A DNA stretch of 32,000 bases from an uncultured archaeon (GTDB lineage: Archaea; Iainarchaeota; Iainarchaeia; Iainarchaeales; CSSED10-239), in NCBI GenBank assembly GCA_964586355.1, contig CAZPGO010000032.1, forward strand, positions 9,505 to 41,504, read 5' to 3'. Shown here piece after piece: positions 22,873-32,000 of this stretch (the stretch's first letter is position 1; every line of letters begins with the position of its first letter). A program made the position numbers and the translations under genes. The notes below the pieces were generated by a model. That model ran no database searches. It was not told where the DNA came from and was given only the letters and a program-made list of their open reading frames with translations.

Positions 22873-23505
22873 GTGATTATGAAATTGGCTTGGTTAAACT
22901 TTTTAGAATCTATTTGTTTTTTAGAAGAAAACAATATTGTTTGTCATGAGACATTTATTATTAATAAGAAAGACCAATTAAAAAAACACATAGACTTTCC
23001 ATATGTTTTAAAGATAAGTTCAGATCTTTTACACAAAACAGAAGTAAATGCAGTAAAAACAGATTTATTTTCTTTAAAGGATCTTGAAAAAGCTTTTTTA
23101 GATCTTAATACTGTTTTAATAAAAAACAAAATTGATGGAACCATTTGTTTACAAAAACAAATAAAAGGAATAGAAGTTATTGTTGGTATAACAAACGATT
23201 CCCAATTTGGAAAAGTTTTGTTATTTGGACAGGGAGGGATCTTTGCTGAAAAAAATAAAGACAACTCAATGAAAATTTTGCCAATAACAAAAAAAGATAC
23301 AAAAGATCTTTTAGAAAAAACAATTGTTGGAAAAATAATTTCTAAAGGGTATAGAAACAAAAAATATCCAAAAGAGAAATTAGAAAAACTGTTTTTAGAT
23401 CTTAGTAAGTTAGCTATTCAAAAAGATATTAAAGAACTAGATCTAAATCCAATAATAATTACAGAAAAAGAGATCTATATCGTGGATGCTAGAATAAAAG
23501 TTTAG
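22873..23505 (+). CDS. stand-alone ATP-grasp protein resembling the beta subunit of ADP-forming acetyl-CoA synthetase
   Basis: FPYVLKISSDLLHKTEVNAVKTDL, IVGITNDSQFGKVLLFGQGGIFAE and ELDLNPIII match the ACD-beta pattern (PVVLKI.SP.I.HK.D.GGV; ElivG...D..FGpv..fG.GG; ElDiNPl). The track start is GTG 22873; ATG 22879 is an alternative start. Confidence 0.65.
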   Translation: MIMKLAWLNFLESICFLEENNIVCHETFIINKKDQLKKHIDFPYVLKISSDLLHKTEVNAVKTDLFSLKDLEKAFLDLNTVLIKNKIDGTICLQKQIKGIEVIVGITNDSQFGKVLLFGQGGIFAEKNKDNSMKILPITKKDTKDLLEKTIVGKIISKGYRNKKYPKEKLEKLFLDLSKLAIQKDIKELDLNPIIITEKEIYIVDARIKV

Positions 23506-23515
23506 AGGAAAAAGA

Positions 23516-24628
23516 ATGAATTTTCAAAATATTATGTCAAAAGAAGATATGTTTTTTAAATTAGATAATATTATCAATAAATTAGATATAAAAGATAAGA
23601 TACTTATTATAACTCATAATGATTTAGATGGGTTGGTCTCAGCATACTGTTTAGAAAAATATTTAATTAGTGGAAATTTTAATGTTGTTGTACATACATT
23701 ATCCAATAAAATATTAATGCAAAATTTTGATGATTATTGCGATAGAATAAATACAGACCATTTTGATTGTATTATTAGTTTAGATATATTTGATCAGAAA
23801 ATGTTAACACAATTTAATAATAAAAAATATTTTGTTGTTGATCATCACGCAAGTTCAAAAAATCTAGATAAGGACAATATTGTAAATCTTTCAGATTATT
23901 TTAATATAAACAAAATACCAGCAGTTGGTGCTTTTTTATTTGGATATACCCAAAATAAAGTCGAGTATCCTGTTTGGTTCTCACTTGTTGCAAAATTTTG
24001 TGATGGTTTAATTTTGGAAAATGAGTTTTTTGTATCTCATCTGGATAATGATATAAATTATATTAATGATCTTCCAAGGCCAGAAATTTTGAAATTTATT
24101 GAATTTATTAATTCTTTTTATAATCATGATTTGAATATAAAAGACATTTATTTGCCGTTTAGAGAATGCGTGGATTCCGATAATTTATTTTGGTATGGGT
24201 TCTCTAAATCAGAAGAACTAATATATTTAAATAAATTAAAAAAGAAAATAGATATTTCAAAAGACGCACTTTTAAAAAAATGTTTAATAAAATATAAAAA
24301 ATATGATTCTGCAAAATTAATCTTATTTAATATTACTGAAAAAGAGAATGAGGTTAGAAGGGAAATTATTGGTACTTTTGAGTATCTATTTTTTGGATAT
24401 AATATTTTATTTCTTTCAAAAACAAATGATGGATATATTATATCATACAGAACAAACACAACCAATTTTGATGTGATCAAAAATTTAAAACCAATATATG
24501 ATAATTATTGTCATTTTCAAGGACATCCTTTTGCAGCAGGTGGTTTTGTTAAAACAGAATTTAAAAATAAATTTATTAAAGATACATTAAATTATTTAAA
24601 AAAATATTATTTAAATAAGGATATTTAA
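23516..24628 (+). CDS. DHH/DHHA1-family phosphoesterase (RecJ/NrnA-like)
   Basis: GAGGA Shine-Dalgarno motif upstream. Motif I IITHNDLDGLVSA; DHH motif FVVDHHAS; DHHA1 motif GHPFAAGG near the C-terminus. Confidence 0.8.
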   Translation: MNFQNIMSKEDMFFKLDNIINKLDIKDKILIITHNDLDGLVSAYCLEKYLISGNFNVVVHTLSNKILMQNFDDYCDRINTDHFDCIISLDIFDQKMLTQFNNKKYFVVDHHASSKNLDKDNIVNLSDYFNINKIPAVGAFLFGYTQNKVEYPVWFSLVAKFCDGLILENEFFVSHLDNDINYINDLPRPEILKFIEFINSFYNHDLNIKDIYLPFRECVDSDNLFWYGFSKSEELIYLNKLKKKIDISKDALLKKCLIKYKKYDSAKLILFNITEKENEVRREIIGTFEYLFFGYNILFLSKTNDGYIISYRTNTTNFDVIKNLKPIYDNYCHFQGHPFAAGGFVKTEFKNKFIKDTLNYLKKYYLNKDI

Positions 24629-24631
24629 AAT

Positions 24632-25549
24632 ATGAAATATAATTTAGATTTACATACGTGTCTTCTAAAGAGAAGATCTCCATCCAAAAGATATTGGAAA
24701 TATGTAAATAAAAATAATTTGTTAGGAACCGCAATAACTGAACAAAATACTCTTAATCCAAAAGGAGCATATTTTGAATTATTAAAAAATAAACCAAAAA
24801 ATAAAGTATTGATTCCAGGAGTCTCAATTAACACCGATTTAGGAGAAGTAATAATTCTTTCAAAATCTCCAGAGATTTATGACTATGGAATAATCTATGA
24901 GCAAAACATAGGTCTAAAAAGAATATACGATTTTTGTGAAAAAAAAGGTTATTTAATTGCTTTTTCACACCCATTTGGCTATGCCACAAATTCAGTAACT
25001 TACAAAATGGGTCTTGATAAATTAGAAAAGTTTGTAAAAACTAAAAATATTGGTGTTGAAACATATAATGGAATGATTGGTTATCTTTCATATTATATGT
25101 ATGATTCCTTTTTTATTAGAAGATTTAGAGATTTATTACTTTTTTTAGAAAAAAATACTCTTTCAAAAACTATTAAAATTTCAAAATATTTTCAAAAAAT
25201 TAATTTGATTTTAGATCAAAAAAGTTATGATGTTGTGTATAGATTTTCAGCAGGAATAAAATTAGGTAAAATTGCAAAATTTGTAATTGCTGGTTCTGGA
25301 ACACAGTATATAGAAAGAATAGGTTCTGGTGTTTTAAGTATTGATCTTTCTAAAAACTTTTTTGAAGATTTTGATGATTCTGAAAAGCAAAACGAATATA
25401 TTTTAAATAAGATCTATAATAAACAAATAATATCAGTAGGTCCACCAGGAACAGACACAGAATCAGGTTTTGAGAGATCTAAAAGAAGAATTAAAAAAAC
25501 AAAAGCTTATATTGATTTAATTTATCTTACAAAAAACTCTGTTAAATGA
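24632..25549 (+). CDS. PHP-domain-like protein with several substituted metal ligands
   Basis: The order of PHP motifs is preserved but degenerate: DLHTC (family DLHxH), AITEQN (iTDHn), PGVSIN (GvE), AFSHPF (aHP), VETYNG (E.yN), AGSGTQY (GSDAH). Its stop overlaps the next gene's start by 4 nt (ATGA at 25546-25549). Confidence 0.5.
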   Translation: MKYNLDLHTCLLKRRSPSKRYWKYVNKNNLLGTAITEQNTLNPKGAYFELLKNKPKNKVLIPGVSINTDLGEVIILSKSPEIYDYGIIYEQNIGLKRIYDFCEKKGYLIAFSHPFGYATNSVTYKMGLDKLEKFVKTKNIGVETYNGMIGYLSYYMYDSFFIRRFRDLLLFLEKNTLSKTIKISKYFQKINLILDQKSYDVVYRFSAGIKLGKIAKFVIAGSGTQYIERIGSGVLSIDLSKNFFEDFDDSEKQNEYILNKIYNKQIISVGPPGTDTESGFERSKRRIKKTKAYIDLIYLTKNSVK

Positions 25550-26292
25550 TTATTATGATGCCTTTATTTATTTATCCTATGTTTTTAATAACTTTAATCT
25601 GCTTAGGATATTATGTTTATCAAGACTTTAAATTTAGAGAAATAAATATTGTTCCAATGATTTTTTTATCAATATTTGCTTTTTTGTACAATCTATATTT
25701 TTTTGTTAGATTAGGGGTTTGGAACTTTTATTTAGTACAAATATTAATAACTTGTTTTTTTGTAGGTGTTATTTTTACACTTGGAAAAATTACTGTTTTT
25801 GCATATATTGGAGAAGGAGATCTATTAACAATTATTTTTATTTCCATAACTAGTGGGCTAGGTATTTTATATGCTCCAGTTATTTTCTTAGCCTCTTTAG
25901 TTGCTATTTTGTTTATTCCTTTGATTTTGTTTTTTTATAATTTGTTTTGTAAGCATTATACAAAGTATTCTTTTTTTGATAATATTTTTTTAATGTCATT
26001 AGGTTATCCTTTATTAATCTCTAAGATAAATAAATTTCATACACCTTTAGAAAAAATAAGTATAAAAAACGGAAGAATTAAAAGAATTGTTAATCTTAAA
26101 CCAAACACAGATCCAAAATCAGAAATTTATGATCTGAAAAAAACAAATTCTATTTATAATTTAAAATATGTTTGGGTCTCTCCATTAATACCTTTTGTGG
26201 TCCCAATTTTTATTTCTTACCTGGTTTTTTCAGTTTTAAGCCTTTTTAACTGTTTTTTAGAACTTGGAAAGTATCTTATTTTATATATATAA
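25546..26292 (+). CDS. A24-family archaeal prepilin/preflagellin peptidase (PibD/FlaK/EppA-like)
   Basis: Polytopic membrane protein. First catalytic Asp sits in YQDFKFREI (D27, nt 25624-25626). The second sits in GEGDL (D92, nt 25819-25821), corresponding to the GxGD motif of the family. Confidence 0.8.
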   Translation: MIIMMPLFIYPMFLITLICLGYYVYQDFKFREINIVPMIFLSIFAFLYNLYFFVRLGVWNFYLVQILITCFFVGVIFTLGKITVFAYIGEGDLLTIIFISITSGLGILYAPVIFLASLVAILFIPLILFFYNLFCKHYTKYSFFDNIFLMSLGYPLLISKINKFHTPLEKISIKNGRIKRIVNLKPNTDPKSEIYDLKKTNSIYNLKYVWVSPLIPFVVPIFISYLVFSVLSLFNCFLELGKYLILYI

Positions 26293-26361: not shown

Positions 26362-29094
26362 ATGGTAGAACTAAAAAAAAATAAATTACATAAGTCAGAG
26401 ATAAAAAAAGAAAAACTATCTGTAAAAGATAGTGGATTAAAAAAATTAAGTTTATTTAATCCTAAAGATAATGATAATTATAAGAATAATTCTAAAAACC
26501 ACTCACTATCAAAAACAAAAGAATATGTTCCAAAAAAGATAGTTTTCAAAAAGTTAGATCTTTCAAAAAAAAACCTTCTACTATCAGCTAATAAAATTAG
26601 TAAAGAACAAGATAAGAAAAGAGATCAAAAAACAAATAATTTAGATACTGGTGAAATCTTAAATTATTTAAAAAGTCAATTACCTAAAGACGATCTAACT
26701 CAAGACTCAAAAGAAGTAACTGATCTAGAAAATACAAAAAAGTCAGAATCTGTTGATGATCTTTTAGATGAATTGTCCTCAAAAACAAAAGATATGGATC
26801 AAGATAACAGCATATCTATAGAACAAATCTCTTTTTTAGATGATTCTCCAAAATTAAAAAAAATGTTTTTTAAAGATCACAATGTTTCTAATCTTTATTC
26901 TAAAATAGATAGTCTAGAAAAACAAACAAATTTAGAAGAAGATAGATTAAATAAGTTAGAAAAAAACAGAAACCTTAAAGAAAATAATTTAGTTAAAGAT
27001 CAAAAAGATTCAAATAACTCAAAAGGACAAAAATTAAAAAAGTTTAAAGTTATTCCTCTAATTGAACAATTTGATATTCCTTCTATTTTGTCATTAAAAG
27101 ACAAAACAAATTTTGAAGGAACAATATTTAAGAAAGGTTTTTTTATAATGGATGATATTAAATTGGGTTCTGATCAATTAAGACCAAATAATTTTATAAA
27201 AGATAAAAATTCTTTAAAACTAAATCCAGAAATTGATAAAAAAAGAGAACAAATTAAAAAAGAAAAAGCTAAAAAGAAAGAAGATAAAAAACAAGAAAAA
27301 AAAGATATTACAAATATAATAGTAAATTCTAAAGAGCTTTATGATGATGTTAGTGACTTTGAGAAAAAATCAAATTCAAAAGAAATAATTCCTAATACTA
27401 AAAAATTATCTTTAGATAAAGATCAAAACAGAAATTCTGATAAAGAGAATTCTATAATCTCAACCAGCTCCGTTTCTAATAATTCAGATACTAATCAAAA
27501 GGTTGATGAGAATGAAGTTTTAAAGAAAAAGAATTCTTTGTTATCTGGTACTAAAGAAACAGGCTTTAGTCATTTGTTACCCTCTAACAAATCTTTTTCT
27601 GATTCAAAAGAGATTTCTCAGAAGTTTATAAGATCTGGTATCCAATCAAAAACAGGATCTGTAATTAAAAGCGACTTTGAAAATAAGGCAAAAACTTATC
27701 CAGAATTAGTGTATACTATTAAATCTAGTGCAAAAAATTTTGATTATAGTTCTGTGTATGAGAAATATAATATTGATGAACTCTCTTATGTAACAATATT
27801 TTATGATAATGTAAAAGGTCTTTGTTATAATATTGTTCAACCAGAGCTTACAGCCCCTCAAGAAAAAATATTTTTAGATATAAAAAAACATTTTTTAGAT
27901 TCAATTGATCAAAATTATTTTTCCTTTAAGGGGGATAAAGAAAATATTAGAAAATATATTAGATCTATTTTTGATATAACAATAGTTAAATTGTCATATA
28001 ATCTATCTAGTCTAGACAAAAAAATGTATTTTAGTTTTATTGAAAGAGATGTTTCTGGGCTAGGTTTTTTGTATAATCTTTTAAATGATAAAAATGTTTT
28101 AGAAGTAACTTGTCCAGGAGAAAAAACAGCAATAACTGTTTATCATATAAAATATGGTGTTTTACAAACAAATCTAGAGTTTGAAAGTATTCCTAAATTA
28201 AACTTGTTTGTTTTATCTTTAACAAAGATTATGGGTCTACATGTAAATTCTAATCAACCAGTAATTTCTGGGCACTTACCAAATGGGTATAAGGTTGAAG
28301 GACTTTATTCTGTTGGGGATATAAGTAATAGAGGGTCTTCTTTTATTATAAAGAAATATCTTGAAGAACCATTAACCCCAGTAACTCTAATGACCTTAGG
28401 TATTGGAAGTATTGATATCTTTTCATATATCTGGAGTGCTATTGATGAAGGTTATCAGATTGTGTTTACTGGTGAAGAAGAAAATTCTTTAATAACTAAC
28501 ACAGTTGCACAATTTTACCCAGATAAAAAAATAATTTCAGTACAGTCTGTTGATAATTTAACATTAGCTCAAAAAAATTGGATTAAAAGAATTTCTTTAG
28601 AAGACACACAGGTAAGTAAAAAACTAATACTTACTCAAAGTATTTCAGAAAAACCAGATTATTTGATATTAGATCAATTTACTGAAGAGTTTTTTGATAC
28701 TCAATGGTATAATCTAAATATGTTGTCTGTTGATAATAAATTAATTGATACTTATTGTGAAAAAGCAAAATCGATTAGTAGTAATCTATTATTAATAGAT
28801 CTTAAAAGAATAAAACAATCCAAAAATCAACAACAAACACAATTTAATAAAATAAAAGAGATCTACAAGGGAAAGGAATATGAGGTGATTGACTTTAATT
28901 CTAAAGATCTAGAATTCCGTGTTAATTTATTGTCTTCAAATATAGATCTAGCAGCCTTTTCTAAGAAAAAGAAATTATTAAGGTGGTTGTTGGATTCTAA
29001 GATCACTAACTATAAGGATTTTAATAGTGTGATAAATGATTATTATTTAGACCCAAATAATTTATTCGAAAAAATAGGATTAAAAGAAAGTTAA
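26362..29094 (+). CDS. FlaI/PilB/GspE-family secretion-ATPase homologue with degenerate catalytic motifs and a ~440-aa low-complexity N-terminal extension
   Basis: The C-terminal ~465 aa follow the archaeal FlaI/type IV pilus ATPase pattern: YNIVQPELT, ERDVSGLGFLYNLLNDKNVLEVTCPG, ISGHLPNGYKVEG, GSSFIIKKY, PLTPVTLM, KNWI, KPDY. However, Walker A is GEEENSLIT (28471-28497), the Asp box is VQSVDN (28540-28557), Walker B is PDYLILDQFTE (28654-28686), and no His box is present. Confidence 0.8.
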   Translation: MVELKKNKLHKSEIKKEKLSVKDSGLKKLSLFNPKDNDNYKNNSKNHSLSKTKEYVPKKIVFKKLDLSKKNLLLSANKISKEQDKKRDQKTNNLDTGEILNYLKSQLPKDDLTQDSKEVTDLENTKKSESVDDLLDELSSKTKDMDQDNSISIEQISFLDDSPKLKKMFFKDHNVSNLYSKIDSLEKQTNLEEDRLNKLEKNRNLKENNLVKDQKDSNNSKGQKLKKFKVIPLIEQFDIPSILSLKDKTNFEGTIFKKGFFIMDDIKLGSDQLRPNNFIKDKNSLKLNPEIDKKREQIKKEKAKKKEDKKQEKKDITNIIVNSKELYDDVSDFEKKSNSKEIIPNTKKLSLDKDQNRNSDKENSIISTSSVSNNSDTNQKVDENEVLKKKNSLLSGTKETGFSHLLPSNKSFSDSKEISQKFIRSGIQSKTGSVIKSDFENKAKTYPELVYTIKSSAKNFDYSSVYEKYNIDELSYVTIFYDNVKGLCYNIVQPELTAPQEKIFLDIKKHFLDSIDQNYFSFKGDKENIRKYIRSIFDITIVKLSYNLSSLDKKMYFSFIERDVSGLGFLYNLLNDKNVLEVTCPGEKTAITVYHIKYGVLQTNLEFESIPKLNLFVLSLTKIMGLHVNSNQPVISGHLPNGYKVEGLYSVGDISNRGSSFIIKKYLEEPLTPVTLMTLGIGSIDIFSYIWSAIDEGYQIVFTGEEENSLITNTVAQFYPDKKIISVQSVDNLTLAQKNWIKRISLEDTQVSKKLILTQSISEKPDYLILDQFTEEFFDTQWYNLNMLSVDNKLIDTYCEKAKSISSNLLLIDLKRIKQSKNQQQTQFNKIKEIYKGKEYEVIDFNSKDLEFRVNLLSSNIDLAAFSKKKKLLRWLLDSKITNYKDFNSVINDYYLDPNNLFEKIGLKES

Positions 29095-29098
29095 AAAT

Positions 29099-29941
29099 AT
29101 GTTTGGAAAAATATATAGTAAAATTGCTGGTGTTTTTTTTGCAGATATTGCAAAAATAATTTCACCTCAATTTAAAAGTTTAGGCAAAACTCTTGAGTTT
29201 ACTGATATTAATGAAAATCTAGTTACCTATTTATCAAACTGTTTATTTTTCTCTTTTTTTATAGGTTTTGTTTTAGAGCTGCTTATGGTTTTTGTGTTGT
29301 TAAAATTAAATATCTATTTTACTATTATCTCTTTTTTGGTAACAATTATTATAGCAGCAAGTTTTGCTGTTTTGATTTTTATTATTCTTTATAGATTTCC
29401 ATATTATATTGTAAAAAGCAAAAAAAAAGATATAGAATCAGAACTAGAGATAAGTTCTAAGCATCTTTCTGTTTTAGAAGATAAAAACTTAACAGTAAAA
29501 GATGTTTTGTTAATCTTACAATCTATTGAAGGAAACAAGCTATTATCTGAAGAATCAAAAAAGATATTAAAGTTAGCAGATCTTAATCATAATCTAAAAA
29601 GCACATTAAAATATATTTGTAGTAATACTTACTCTGAACAAGAATATTCTTTTTTTAGTAAATTAATTGATGTTATTGATAAAAAGATTACACTTTTTGA
29701 AGCAATAACAGAATATTTAACAAGTATAGAACAAGCAAAAAAAGAGAAAGCTGAACAAAGAAAAACAAAAATAAATCTTTTGTTTTTAATTAACATTTTT
29801 TTATTTATATTAATTTTCTTATTAGTTTTTAGTATTTTTTTAATGCCAGTTTATGAAGAGTCAATAAGAGAGCTATTATTAGCAATTGCTATAGTGTTTC
29901 CAATAGTTGAAATAATCTTGGTGTTTGTTTTAAGTAGATGA
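29099..29941 (+). CDS. type IV filament platform protein, single T2SSF-like domain (TadB/FlaJ-half-like)
   Basis: Topology is N-terminal TM pair, ~130-aa cytoplasmic helical domain, then C-terminal TM pair. Lies 4 nt after the FlaI-like gene. The family call rests on topology and context only. Confidence 0.6.
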   Translation: MFGKIYSKIAGVFFADIAKIISPQFKSLGKTLEFTDINENLVTYLSNCLFFSFFIGFVLELLMVFVLLKLNIYFTIISFLVTIIIAASFAVLIFIILYRFPYYIVKSKKKDIESELEISSKHLSVLEDKNLTVKDVLLILQSIEGNKLLSEESKKILKLADLNHNLKSTLKYICSNTYSEQEYSFFSKLIDVIDKKITLFEAITEYLTSIEQAKKEKAEQRKTKINLLFLINIFLFILIFLLVFSIFLMPVYEESIRELLLAIAIVFPIVEIILVFVLSR

Positions 29942-29947
29942 TAGTTT

Positions 29948-31063
29948 ATGAATAAAGTAACAAAAGCAATAAAATTATTTTTTTATAAAAACGAATATCA
30001 GCTATTAGAGCTTTCTGGGATATTTGGTGCTTTTTTAATAGTGTTGATTGCTAATTATTTTTTTGTATCTAGTAAAATGTTTTACTTGATTTTGTTGTTT
30101 GGCTTGTTTGTTGGCTCTTTTGGTTTTATAATTGAATATTTTATAAAACAAGACAAAAAGAAATCCATAGAAACAGAATATGGTTATTTCTTATCAGATC
30201 TTTCTAAAGAATATAAAAAAACAAATAATATGTCTTTATCTTTATCTAACTTATTAGAGTCTAACTTTTATGGTAGTATTAATCTAGAAATAAAAAGACT
30301 TTCTAATAGAGTGTCTTGGGGAGAAAGTTTTGAAGAGTCTTTAAAATCAATTAATGAAAATATTAATAGCCCAATAATAGAACATAGTCTTAGTCTATTA
30401 AATGTTTTAAAAGAATCAGCAATGACTTATGATAAAGTTTTACTAAATATTTCAAAAGATATTAATATTTTTAAAAGTGAGACTAGAAGTAGAAAATATT
30501 TCAAAAATCTTTTTAACTTGTCTATTGTTTTTTATTTTTTATTTATATTAATATTAATCTATATAGATTTTATAATAGGAAAAAACTTTTTATGGTTTAG
30601 CGGTTCAGAAGAAATGACAAGAGTTTTTTTTGATAATTTTTTGTTGTATATTGGTTTGTTGTTAGCTTTTTTTACTGCATTTGTAATGTACTCCATTAAT
30701 TCTGATAGACCAATTGTTTTGTTAAAATATGTGTCTGTTTTATTTTTAATAACTATAATATTATTTCAAATCTTCATTCCAAAACCAGATGCTGATGAAG
30801 TACTAATTGATACCATTAATTATTTAGTAAAACATAATAGTGATAAAGAAATAGAGATAGACCAAATAATTGCAATAAAATCCATTAGTTCTAAATTGGT
30901 GGTTGATAAAACAGGAATTGAAACTCTTGTTTTTATAAATAATGATTCTTTAGAGAGAATAGAAGAGTTTGGATTAATTATTGAAAATCCTTTGTTTTTT
31001 AATTTTTTAATAACTAAAAAAAGCAATCTAAATTATGTTGTTTACTATACCAAGTTGGAATAA
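29948..31063 (+). CDS. type IV filament platform protein, second single T2SSF-like domain (TadC/FlaJ-half-like) with extra ~90-aa C-terminal domain
   Basis: Same TM/helical-domain/TM arrangement (…EYGYFLSDLSKEYKKTNNMSLSLSNLLES…IKRLSNRVSWGESFEESLKSI…). Lies 6 nt after the previous gene. Has an additional soluble C-terminal segment. Confidence 0.6.
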   Translation: MNKVTKAIKLFFYKNEYQLLELSGIFGAFLIVLIANYFFVSSKMFYLILLFGLFVGSFGFIIEYFIKQDKKKSIETEYGYFLSDLSKEYKKTNNMSLSLSNLLESNFYGSINLEIKRLSNRVSWGESFEESLKSINENINSPIIEHSLSLLNVLKESAMTYDKVLLNISKDINIFKSETRSRKYFKNLFNLSIVFYFLFILILIYIDFIIGKNFLWFSGSEEMTRVFFDNFLLYIGLLLAFFTAFVMYSINSDRPIVLLKYVSVLFLITIILFQIFIPKPDADEVLIDTINYLVKHNSDKEIEIDQIIAIKSISSKLVVDKTGIETLVFINNDSLERIEEFGLIIENPLFFNFLITKKSNLNYVVYYTKLE

Positions 31064-31066
31064 ACT

Positions 31067-31408
31067 ATGATCTTAAACAAAACCACAAATAAAAAAATAA
31101 TTTCTAAAAAGAAAATTGCAGACACCTTTATAAAAAGAGCAATTGGTCTAATGTTTTCTTCTAAGAAAAAATTTGATTTTGGTTTGATTTTTGATCTAAA
31201 AAGGGAAACTGTTACTGGTGCTGGTATTCATATGTTTTTTGTGTTTTTTAGTATTAATGTTTTGTTTTTGGATAAAAATAAAAAAATTATTGATTATAAG
31301 AGATTAAGACCATTTACTATCTATCAACCAGTAAAAAAAATAAGATATATTATAGAATTACCAGTAAAATGTAATAACTATAAAATAAATGACAAGGTGG
31401 AGTGGTAA
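31067..31408 (+). CDS. DUF192-family protein (COG1430-like)
   Basis: FIKRAIGLMF...GLIF...IHMFFVFFSINVLFLDKNKKIIDY...RYIIELP matches the DUF192 pattern (rGLM.r....g.lF......hM..m.fpiDv.flD......V.....yvLE). Confidence 0.65.
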   Translation: MILNKTTNKKIISKKKIADTFIKRAIGLMFSSKKKFDFGLIFDLKRETVTGAGIHMFFVFFSINVLFLDKNKKIIDYKRLRPFTIYQPVKKIRYIIELPVKCNNYKINDKVEW

Positions 31409-31411
31409 AGT

Positions 31412-32000
31412 ATTTCTAAAATTTTATTAAATAAATCTAAAGGGCTATCAGAGATTATAACTGTCGTTTTAATTATAGTTATTGTTGCAATTTTGTCTGT
31501 AATTGTTTATAGTTGGTCAAAAGACACCATGGATAATAGTTTAAGTAGAATAGATAAACAACAAAGCGATCTTGAAAGATATTTGGATTGTAGTGAGGTT
31601 AGGTTAAAAGTTGATTCTTGTAAGATTGACAAATACACTAAAGACATAAATATTTTAGTTTTAAATCAATCACAGATGGATCTTCCAGATTTTATATTAA
31701 GTATTTTAGGTAAAACCTATGATGGAGAAGAATTTAATCAAAACATTTTATTTTCAAAAAAACTTAAGAAAGGAGAAAATTCTTTTCTTACAACTCTAGA
31801 TGCTGTGACTGTTTTTGATGATTCTAATATTGATGATTTAGATCTGAGGAAGATAGATCAGATATCTTTAGGCAATCAGAGATGCAATACTCTTTTTATT
31901 TCAGATCTTAATTGTGAGATTGTAGATAGTTTAGAAGATCATTTAGTTGCGTATTACAGTTTAGATCAAGAAGATCTAATTTATAATGAATTGGAAGGAT
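31412..32000 (+). CDS. archaeal type IV pilin-like protein with class III signal peptide (partial; runs off the window end); proposed ATT start
   Basis: Not in the ORF track. The frame is open from the TAA at 31406-31408 to nt 32000. It encodes (I/M)SKILLNKSKG|LSEIITVVLIIVIVAILSVIVYSW, i.e. a short basic leader, a KG cleavage motif and a hydrophobic helix, as in archaeal Pilin_N-type pilins. There is no ATG/GTG/TTG before the helix. AAGGTGGAG (31394-31402) is a Shine-Dalgarno-like motif upstream of ATT 31412. Confidence 0.65.
   Translation, partial: MSKILLNKSKGLSEIITVVLIIVIVAILSVIVYSWSKDTMDNSLSRIDKQQSDLERYLDCSEVRLKVDSCKIDKYTKDINILVLNQSQMDLPDFILSILGKTYDGEEFNQNILFSKKLKKGENSFLTTLDAVTVFDDSNIDDLDLRKIDQISLGNQRCNTLFISDLNCEIVDSLEDHLVAYYSLDQEDLIYNELEG

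Follow-up and report, generated by a model that had tools for sequence, protein, structure and literature searches.

Type IV filament machines (pili, archaella, type II secretion systems and competence pili) are thought to depend on a hexameric ATPase of the PilB/GspE/FlaI type. Can the subunit in the motor position of such a machine lose every catalytic motif and still be kept by selection? The question is raised by a 32,000-nucleotide stretch of DNA from an uncultured archaeon (contig CAZPGO010000032.1, positions 9,505 to 41,504; the whole stretch is called the window below), in which a pilus-type gene cluster contains an open reading frame (ORF) for a 910-residue protein. A preliminary description of the window, made from the sequence alone, regarded this protein as a FlaI/PilB homologue in which every ATPase motif is mutated, and the ORF was reproduced intact at exactly the same coordinates (Table 1). 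The protein is a retained pseudo-ATPase under purifying selection in a monophyletic DPANN clade and not a broken gene.

A phmmer search against PDB sequences matched afGspE (2OAP) at E=1.6e-34 over residues 545–773 and FlaI (4II7) at E=1.1e-28 over residues 469–775. The NCBIfam FlaI model (NF058587) matched at E=2.7e-33, with 115.5 bits against an equivalog cut-off of 550. An AlphaFold2 (AF2) model built with 37 sequences shows predicted local distance difference test (pLDDT) values mostly of 85–95 in the core and superposes on chain 2 of 2OAP with a template modelling (TM) score of 0.75 over 483 columns (Foldseek, E=8e-31); all FlaI chains, 4II7 among them, match the model at E ~1e-29. Pfam T2SSE (PF00437) gave no match to the 910-residue protein at E<=0.1, and so the homology is shown through PDB, NCBIfam and fold. 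PilB3_C gives a weak, sub-threshold Pfam match at residues 868–905. By predicted fold and ancestry, residues ~446–910 unambiguously represent a FlaI/afGspE-type secretion ATPase, in agreement with an earlier alignment of residues ~445–910 by eye to FlaI and type IV pilus ATPases. Since the FlaI score lies below the equivalog cut-off and no archaellum accessory gene (ArlH, ArlF/G, ArlB or ArlX/CDE) is present in the window or its flanks, the protein lacks both the score and the gene context of an archaellum FlaI/ArlI. The IMG label "archaeal flagellar protein FlaI" is therefore an over-annotation, and the protein should not be annotated as FlaI or as an ATPase.

The motif columns were placed by HMMER and MAFFT alignments with solved FlaI and GspE proteins and with 57 catalytically intact relatives, hereafter live relatives. 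These alignments confirm the first reading of the former Walker A motif, Asp box and Walker B motif in both coordinates and columns, including a Gln at the position of the catalytic Glu in Walker B. The His box, TGH...HA, which had been reported as not visible, is gone through deletions of 5 and 9 residues. The pattern GK[ST] occurs nowhere in the 910-residue protein, so no intact P-loop lies outside the aligned column.

A column table comparing 28 family members with the 57 live relatives, in which a column counts as conserved when at least 90% of the live relatives agree, shows that ~33 of ~58 such columns have been lost in the family, every catalytic position and all arginines among them. 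The former P-loop has neither the Lys nor the Thr of Walker A and is 2–3 residues shorter than GxxxxGKT in all 28 members, nearly all of which carry Asp or Glu in the shortened loop. Gln728 stands in place of the Asp-box Glu in 28 of 28, and the Thr and the second Glu of this box are also lost. The Walker B Gly has become Asp771 in 27 members, the Arg and Gly of the motif are lost, and the catalytic Glu column is variable (Glu in 12 of the 28, then Asn, Thr, Asp and Gln). Both His-box histidines have disappeared, the first by deletion of GH, and six conserved arginines have been replaced (R644K, R664K, R762S, R774T, R801K and R826I/T/M). The structural residues D576, C584, G586, H595, P633, G642, G658, F661, P670, W691, G704, N713, W740, P765, Y767, E833 and Y894 are kept. 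Y643, K644, Q728, D771, W782 and Y783 are newly fixed in 26–28 of the 28 members, W782 and Y783 just upstream of the former His-box region. Because lost positions have been re-fixed to new residues and the former P-loop is acidic, the site appears to be remodelled rather than decaying.

Simple pattern counts over the window protein and 22 orthologues agree with the column table. GK[ST] is found in none of these 23 proteins, whereas all 21 canonical matches carry GxxxxGKT; the strict PDYxxxGE pattern is found in 0 of 23 versus 18 of 21; and [ST]GH is found in 21 of 21 canonical matches versus a single family protein, the window protein, where it is an unrelated SGH at residue 636. We infer that canonical ATP binding and hydrolysis would no longer be possible. 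In terms of its superfamily, the protein shows homology and the two-domain fold and lacks the PF00437 match, the Walker A motif, the carboxylates, the His box and the arginines.

The 22 orthologues were obtained by a word-indexed search, with 46–56% identity over the core, and none has a precomputed PF00437 match; the second tier of the same search consists of canonical FlaI-like proteins with ~25% identity, all 21 of which carry PF00437. When 1.84 billion cluster representatives were searched exhaustively with a profile, ~16 family clusters of 791–1132 residues scored above 580 bits, set apart from a next score of at most 259 bits, and a family scan of genome contigs led to four metagenome-assembled genomes. 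The ORF is intact in at least 28 orthologues with 37–92% identity. A neighbour-joining tree unites the 28 family sequences in a clade of their own at the end of a long stem, indicating that the degenerate motifs have a single origin in this main clade. The ratio of nonsynonymous to synonymous substitution rates (dN/dS; Nei–Gojobori, three orthologue pairs) is 0.058–0.097 for the FlaI-like core and 0.15–0.29 for the N-terminal extension. The neighbouring platform, peptidase, PHP-like and DUF192 genes give 0.05–0.16, the first and second platform halves having values of 0.05–0.08 and 0.06, respectively. Three assemblies, one from Logan and two from JGI metagenomes, each recorded under its own sample accession, show no mismatch over 10.9 kb including the pseudo-ATPase gene. 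For two window genes, NCBI assigns the relatives to Ca. Diapherotrites or Ca. Iainarchaeum, which makes the source a DPANN archaeon of uncertain placement below that level; the window itself has ~25% G+C and contains the archaeal housekeeping genes for NMD3, a beta-CASP RNase, SerRS and SMC.

The common losses in at least 28 orthologues, the low dN/dS, the re-fixed positions and the identical assemblies together argue against decay, and the earlier suggestion of a retained pseudo-ATPase is thereby upheld. Neither of two findings that could have overturned it was made: the gene is base-identical in separately recorded assemblies and not a read artefact, and its orthologues are intact under strong purifying selection, unlike a recent lineage-specific pseudogene. 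A clear enzyme homologue that has lost its catalytic residues and is kept by purifying selection is what the operational definition of a pseudoenzyme describes, and the protein fits it.

Table 1. Features of the pseudo-ATPase locus, with positions counted from the first nucleotide of the window
Feature	Positions	Strand	Evidence or remark
PHP-domain-like protein, 305 aa, first conserved cluster gene	24632..25549	+	relatives with ~35% identity carry PF02811/PF13263
FlaK/PibD-type prepilin (class III signal) peptidase	25546..26292	+	Pfam Arc_PepC_II E=1.4e-10; NCBIfam FlaK E=4.9e-12
Pseudo-ATPase, FlaI/PilB/afGspE family, catalytic motifs all lost	26362..29094	+	ATG start, 910 aa
N-terminal extension, residues 1-445, Lys/Ser/Asn/Asp-rich, mostly predicted disordered	26362..27696	+	composition, pLDDT
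FlaI-like core, residues 446-910: N-terminal domain, RecA-like C-terminal domain, C-terminal helical PilB3_C-like tail	27697..29094	+	pLDDT, Foldseek, dN/dS
Former Walker A (P-loop), G704-T712, GEEENSLIT opposite GxxxSGKTT, 2-aa deletion	28471..28497	+	alignment
Former Asp box, V727-N732, VQSVDN opposite IEDTxE	28540..28557	+	alignment
Former Walker B, P765-E775, PDYLILDQFTE opposite PDYIIVGEVRG	28654..28686	+	alignment
Former His-box region, TGH and HA elements deleted/replaced	28708..28737	+	alignment
Split TadC/FlaJ platform, first half, 280 aa	29099..29941	+	Pfam T2SSF E=9.6e-9; NCBIfam ArlJ/FlaJ E=1.8e-9
Split platform, second half, 371 aa	29948..31063	+	Pfam T2SSF E=2.4e-4, below curated cut-off
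DUF192 protein, 113 aa, last conserved cluster gene	31067..31408	+	Pfam DUF192 E=1.7e-11
Pilin-headed adhesin N-terminus, class III signal peptide ..NKSKG/LSEIITVVLIIVIVAILSVIVY	31412..32000	+	TIGR02537 E=2.7e-5, above its cut-off

The cluster is co-directional, with gaps of 69 nucleotides between the peptidase and pseudo-ATPase genes, 4 before the first platform half, 6 between the two halves and 3 before DUF192, so that the tight embedding in an operon noted before holds. The stop of the PHP-like gene overlaps the start of the peptidase gene by 4 nucleotides, indicating translational coupling. The peptidase matches FlaK (3S0X) at E=3.4e-5 with its first catalytic Asp motif aligned (yqDFkfREI versus vqDFrsREI) and contains a GxGD-type motif (IGEGD), and it is apparently active. 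Throughout the clade the pseudo-ATPase gene is always preceded by the gene of such a peptidase, apparently active, and followed by those of a split TadC/FlaJ platform. The order PHP-like/peptidase/pseudo-ATPase/T2SSF/T2SSF/DUF192 is kept in nine related loci, which alone is weak functional evidence because these genomes are broadly syntenic. P0058, a 30% identical protein without the catalytic motifs and sister to the main clade, lies in an unrelated genomic neighbourhood (locus L039), yet it is flanked by Peptidase_A24 and two T2SSF genes colinear with those of the window module, and this arrangement is the stronger functional evidence. The closest live relatives, P0024 and P0031, have the same layout of an ATPase gene and split T2SSF genes, so the module descends from an ordinary DPANN pilus-type module. 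As a type IV pilus-like system, the locus combines a platform, a peptidase and class III signal proteins and lacks a competent assembly ATPase, both in the locus itself and in the ~51 kb around it.

These observations lead us to favour, as the probable explanation, a type IV pilus-like machine in which the pseudo-ATPase serves as a non-catalytic scaffold or adaptor ring and whose energy comes from a canonical ATPase with its gene at another site in the genome. With the live relatives the protein shares the N-terminal domain, the C-terminal helical tail and the hinge between the domains (GSSFIIKKYLExPLTP), and these parts and the structural core residues are the best conserved, on which ground the pseudo-ATPase may still form a cytoplasmic ring that docks on the platform. 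The former nucleotide pocket, re-fixed with a short acidic loop, Q728, D771, K644, K664, Y643, W782 and Y783, could, by way of carboxylate–lysine contacts, imitate a state that is permanently "occupied" or closed and thereby lock the two domains. The Lys-rich disordered arm with its conserved short motifs could recruit partners, and the machine would handle peptidase-processed, pilin-headed LamG adhesins. To our knowledge, ATP hydrolysis is indispensable to every type IV filament system characterised, and every studied filament needs it to extract pilins from the membrane; the energy would hence most likely be supplied in trans. The use of trans-encoded components, which according to an archaeal type IV pilus census is common among archaeal ATPase/TadC modules (PMC4858521), is a further reason for this view.

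Several points weigh against this proposal. That energy is supplied in trans is assumed from what is generally true of type IV filaments, the ring and its docking on the platform are read from conservation, and nucleotide binding of an unconventional kind is not strictly excluded by the missing motifs. A pilin-like gene is not seen within 10 kb of the module in most relatives, and so the substrate is uncertain. No canonical T2SSE ATPase was found in ~51 kb (the window plus 9.5 kb upstream and 10 kb downstream); the earlier statement that the only motor encoded at the locus is dead is accordingly correct for the locus and these ~51 kb, and for that span only. Two indirect searches yielded no candidate either, and neither they nor the ~51 kb amount to evidence of absence: none of the JGI metagenome relatives of P0174, a live archaeal ATPase, came from samples holding the source contig, and a profile of live DPANN ATPases gave no match linked to the family loci among the 120 matches listed.

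The absence of a canonical ATPase in ~51 kb is also the first ground for an unlikely though serious alternative, that there is no hydrolysing motor at all and that a static or passively assembling platform anchors or displays LamG adhesins with pilin heads. The dead ring would then act as a structural plug, and no dynamic filament would form. In agreement with this, platform genes that are dedicated to the dead ATPase and co-evolve with it are found even in the 30% identical relative, the proteins with class III signals next to the locus are LamG adhesins of large size and not small pilins, and DPANN genomes are small and reductive. The same absence covers ~51 kb, with most of the genome unseen, and the general requirement for ATP hydrolysis and the common use of trans-encoded components stand against a machine without a motor. 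A wider form of this idea, in which a whole DPANN clade would possess a pilus-like module with an ATP-incapable ring and no live paralogue, so that adhesins are assembled or displayed without a dedicated ATPase or the module has taken on a new, non-filament function, is doubtful; if true, a machine of type IV filament origin would for the first time be found to lack a hydrolysing motor. The significance of the locus hinges on whether a live paralogue exists in the genome.

A less probable explanation, to which we give little credence, is that the dead ring is a regulatory decoy, which contends with a live ATPase for access to the platform or enters mixed hexamers with it and thus throttles or switches pilus assembly in a dominant-negative manner. 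Retention of the interface parts of the fold with loss of catalysis is the classic signature of a pseudoenzyme regulator, and Walker mutants of PilB-type ATPases are typically dominant-negative. No live paralogue for such a decoy to regulate was identified in the ~51 kb or by the indirect searches, and a core subunit fits better than an accessory regulator because the protein is encoded where the motor normally stands and has a platform and a peptidase of its own.

It is very unlikely that the protein is still an NTPase or a nucleotide sensor acting through non-canonical residues. Basic residues are kept as Lys at the former Arg positions 644 and 664, and new invariant polar residues line the old pocket, showing constraint on the site; the protein has no P-loop with Lys and Thr anywhere, the loop is 2–3 residues shorter and acidic and should repel phosphate, the Walker B Glu is found in 12 of 28 members and the His box has been deleted. 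That the gene is a recent pseudogene, or its sequence the product of an assembly or frameshift error, for which the missing motifs themselves and nothing further could speak, is next to impossible in view of the intact ORFs at 37–92% identity, the core dN/dS of 0.06–0.10, the three identical assemblies and the high-confidence AF2 core.

A scaffold ring powered in trans can be compared with known systems. The pseudo-ATPase is like afGspE (2OAP), FlaI/ArlI (4II7 and 4IHQ) and the archaeal PilB-type proteins in its two-domain fold, helical tail, hinge and structural residues, and like archaeal secretion ATPases in general in that its gene lies directly upstream of a TadC/FlaJ platform; among the live relatives, the closest share the split platform and in many cases carry a long N-terminal arm too. 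It differs from all of these in having no Walker A motif, Asp box, Walker B motif, His box or conserved arginines. The concept of a nucleotide-fold protein as a scaffold, hub or modulator rather than a power source is known from ArlH/FlaH of the archaellum and TadZ/CpaE of Tad pili, which hydrolyse little or no ATP and are the nearest functional analogues, and a paper on the type IV filament superfamily gives TadZ such a role (PMC6668835). Unlike the protein described here, ArlH and TadZ belong to other P-loop families (KaiC/RecA-like and ParA/MinD-like, respectively), still bind ATP and work beside a live PilB/FlaI-type ring, whereas here the PilB/FlaI-type subunit itself is dead. The Sulfolobus bindosome also pairs a type IV pilus-like ATPase (BasE) with a platform (BasF) for large, peptidase-processed proteins with class III signals in place of classical small pilins. 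BasE is a canonical ATPase, and the likeness rests only on the pilin-headed LamG adhesins near the locus; the live relative P0024 matches the BasE model at E=3.6e-59, far below the curated cut-off of that model.

Pseudo-ATPase modules are also present in other ring machines, such as the D2 ring of NSF, AAA5/6 of dynein and the degenerate domains of EccC, in which catalysis has been lost while the fold and assembly interfaces are kept under purifying selection. These belong to unrelated families and are usually fused or paired with live modules in one complex. A dead PilB/FlaI-type subunit was not found described in the archaeal census (PMC4858521), the superfamily paper (PMC6668835), a review of the type IV filament mechanism (PMC10191384) or a review of PilB (PMC11656802), nor was one found in full-text literature searches, which were non-exhaustive; within this literature the earlier remark that no type IV filament system with a dead motor has been described is sustained. 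A conserved dead copy that selection keeps where the motor belongs, accompanied by a dedicated platform and peptidase, uncouples what the ring does structurally from energy transduction and offers a natural "Walker-null" ring on which docking to the platform could be studied. The case also bears on automatic annotation, since Pfam misses the protein and the FlaI label of IMG would wrongly suggest motility. Because DPANN archaea depend on cell–cell contact, an unusual adhesin-handling apparatus could matter for host attachment.

The N-terminal ~440 residues had been described as K/N/S/D-rich and probably disordered, and this part of the description stands: residues 1–445 contain 20% Lys, 12% Ser and 10% each of Leu, Asn and Asp, and most of the extension has pLDDT<50 in the AF2 model. 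The arm is not featureless, with conserved islands at residues ~1–6 (MVELKK), ~131–207, ~229–250 (LIExFDIPxI), ~278–324 and 401–410, the last of which, just before the core, reads FxHLLPxN in the window protein and F/YxYILPxD in the orthologues. Nor is it special to the dead clade: charged extensions of 200–500 residues are also found in the catalytically intact P0059, P0062, P0064, P0082 and P0147, so the arm predates the catalytic loss and is not linked to it. A Lys/Ser/Asn-rich insertion of ~100 residues at ~300–400 (window positions 27260–27560), specific to the source lineage, accounts for the length of 910 residues against ~790–825 in most orthologues.

Catalytic motifs are also altered in some relatives outside the main clade. 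P0115 has GKH for GKT with a degenerate Walker B motif and His box, and P0089 carries Lys to Arg in Walker A and Glu to Asp in Walker B; together they suggest repeated erosion of catalysis in this DPANN ATPase group. P0075 and P0181 were rejected as dead enzymes, both having an intein between GK and T of Walker A (GK/C...HN/T), and P0122 has an intein just before the TGH of its His box (GMA/S...HN/TGHP). A naive motif scan scores all three as dead because of these large inteins inside catalytic motifs. P0174 is a canonical T2SSE ATPase of 494 residues on other low-GC archaeal contigs (L017:4649-6133, L018 and L019) and the most AT-rich live ATPase among the matches; it is an orphan between the MetRS and enolase genes with no adjacent T2SSF gene, which shows that stand-alone live ATPases exist in this general archaeal group.

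The platform is split into two adjacent genes, of ~280 and 310–390 residues, in the window (29099–31063), in L011:5771-7588 and in L039:10475-12471, and the split is common to the dead-ATPase modules and the closest live DPANN relatives. Orthologues of the second half are annotated as T2SSF, and the gene is colinear with the second T2SSF gene of L039. DUF192 follows the platform genes in L001, L003 and L007–L010 and is absent from the L039 module. At the other end of the cluster, the PHP-like gene lies immediately upstream of the peptidase gene in L001, L003 and L007–L009. The 305-residue protein itself has no Pfam match, and its N-terminal motif is DLHTC instead of the usual DxHxH, so that it may be a second degenerate enzyme in the operon. 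In the source lineage only, a DHH/DHHA1-family gene (23516–24628) lies between an ATP-grasp gene (22873–23505) and the PHP-like gene, which follow each other directly in the relatives. The ATP-grasp gene was considered as an alternative energy module and is unsupported as such, since it resembles an ADP-forming acyl-CoA synthetase beta-type domain and the DHH gene intervenes.

The adhesin totals ~537 residues, with a Laminin_G_3 domain beyond the window (E=1.7e-17, full gene in L012), and its archaellin/pilin N-terminal signal (TIGR02537) is the only one in the window; a second protein with Pilin_N and LamG is encoded 6 kb further on in the source genome. The gene adjoins DUF192 only in the source lineage, the ribosomal protein L10e gene following DUF192 in relatives. 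Around its start (window 31397–31500; L012:10331-11956) there is no ATG, GTG or TTG upstream of the class III signal peptide. The frame runs on directly from the TAA stop of DUF192 (..VEW* SISKILLNKSKG/LSEII..), and a Shine–Dalgarno-like GGTGGAG lies ~10 nucleotides upstream of an ATT codon at 31412. In the JGI gene calls the adhesin begins inside the transmembrane helix, at the equivalent of window position 31493 or 31529, and the signal peptide is thus lost. Translation could begin by ATT initiation or by read-through of the DUF192 stop.

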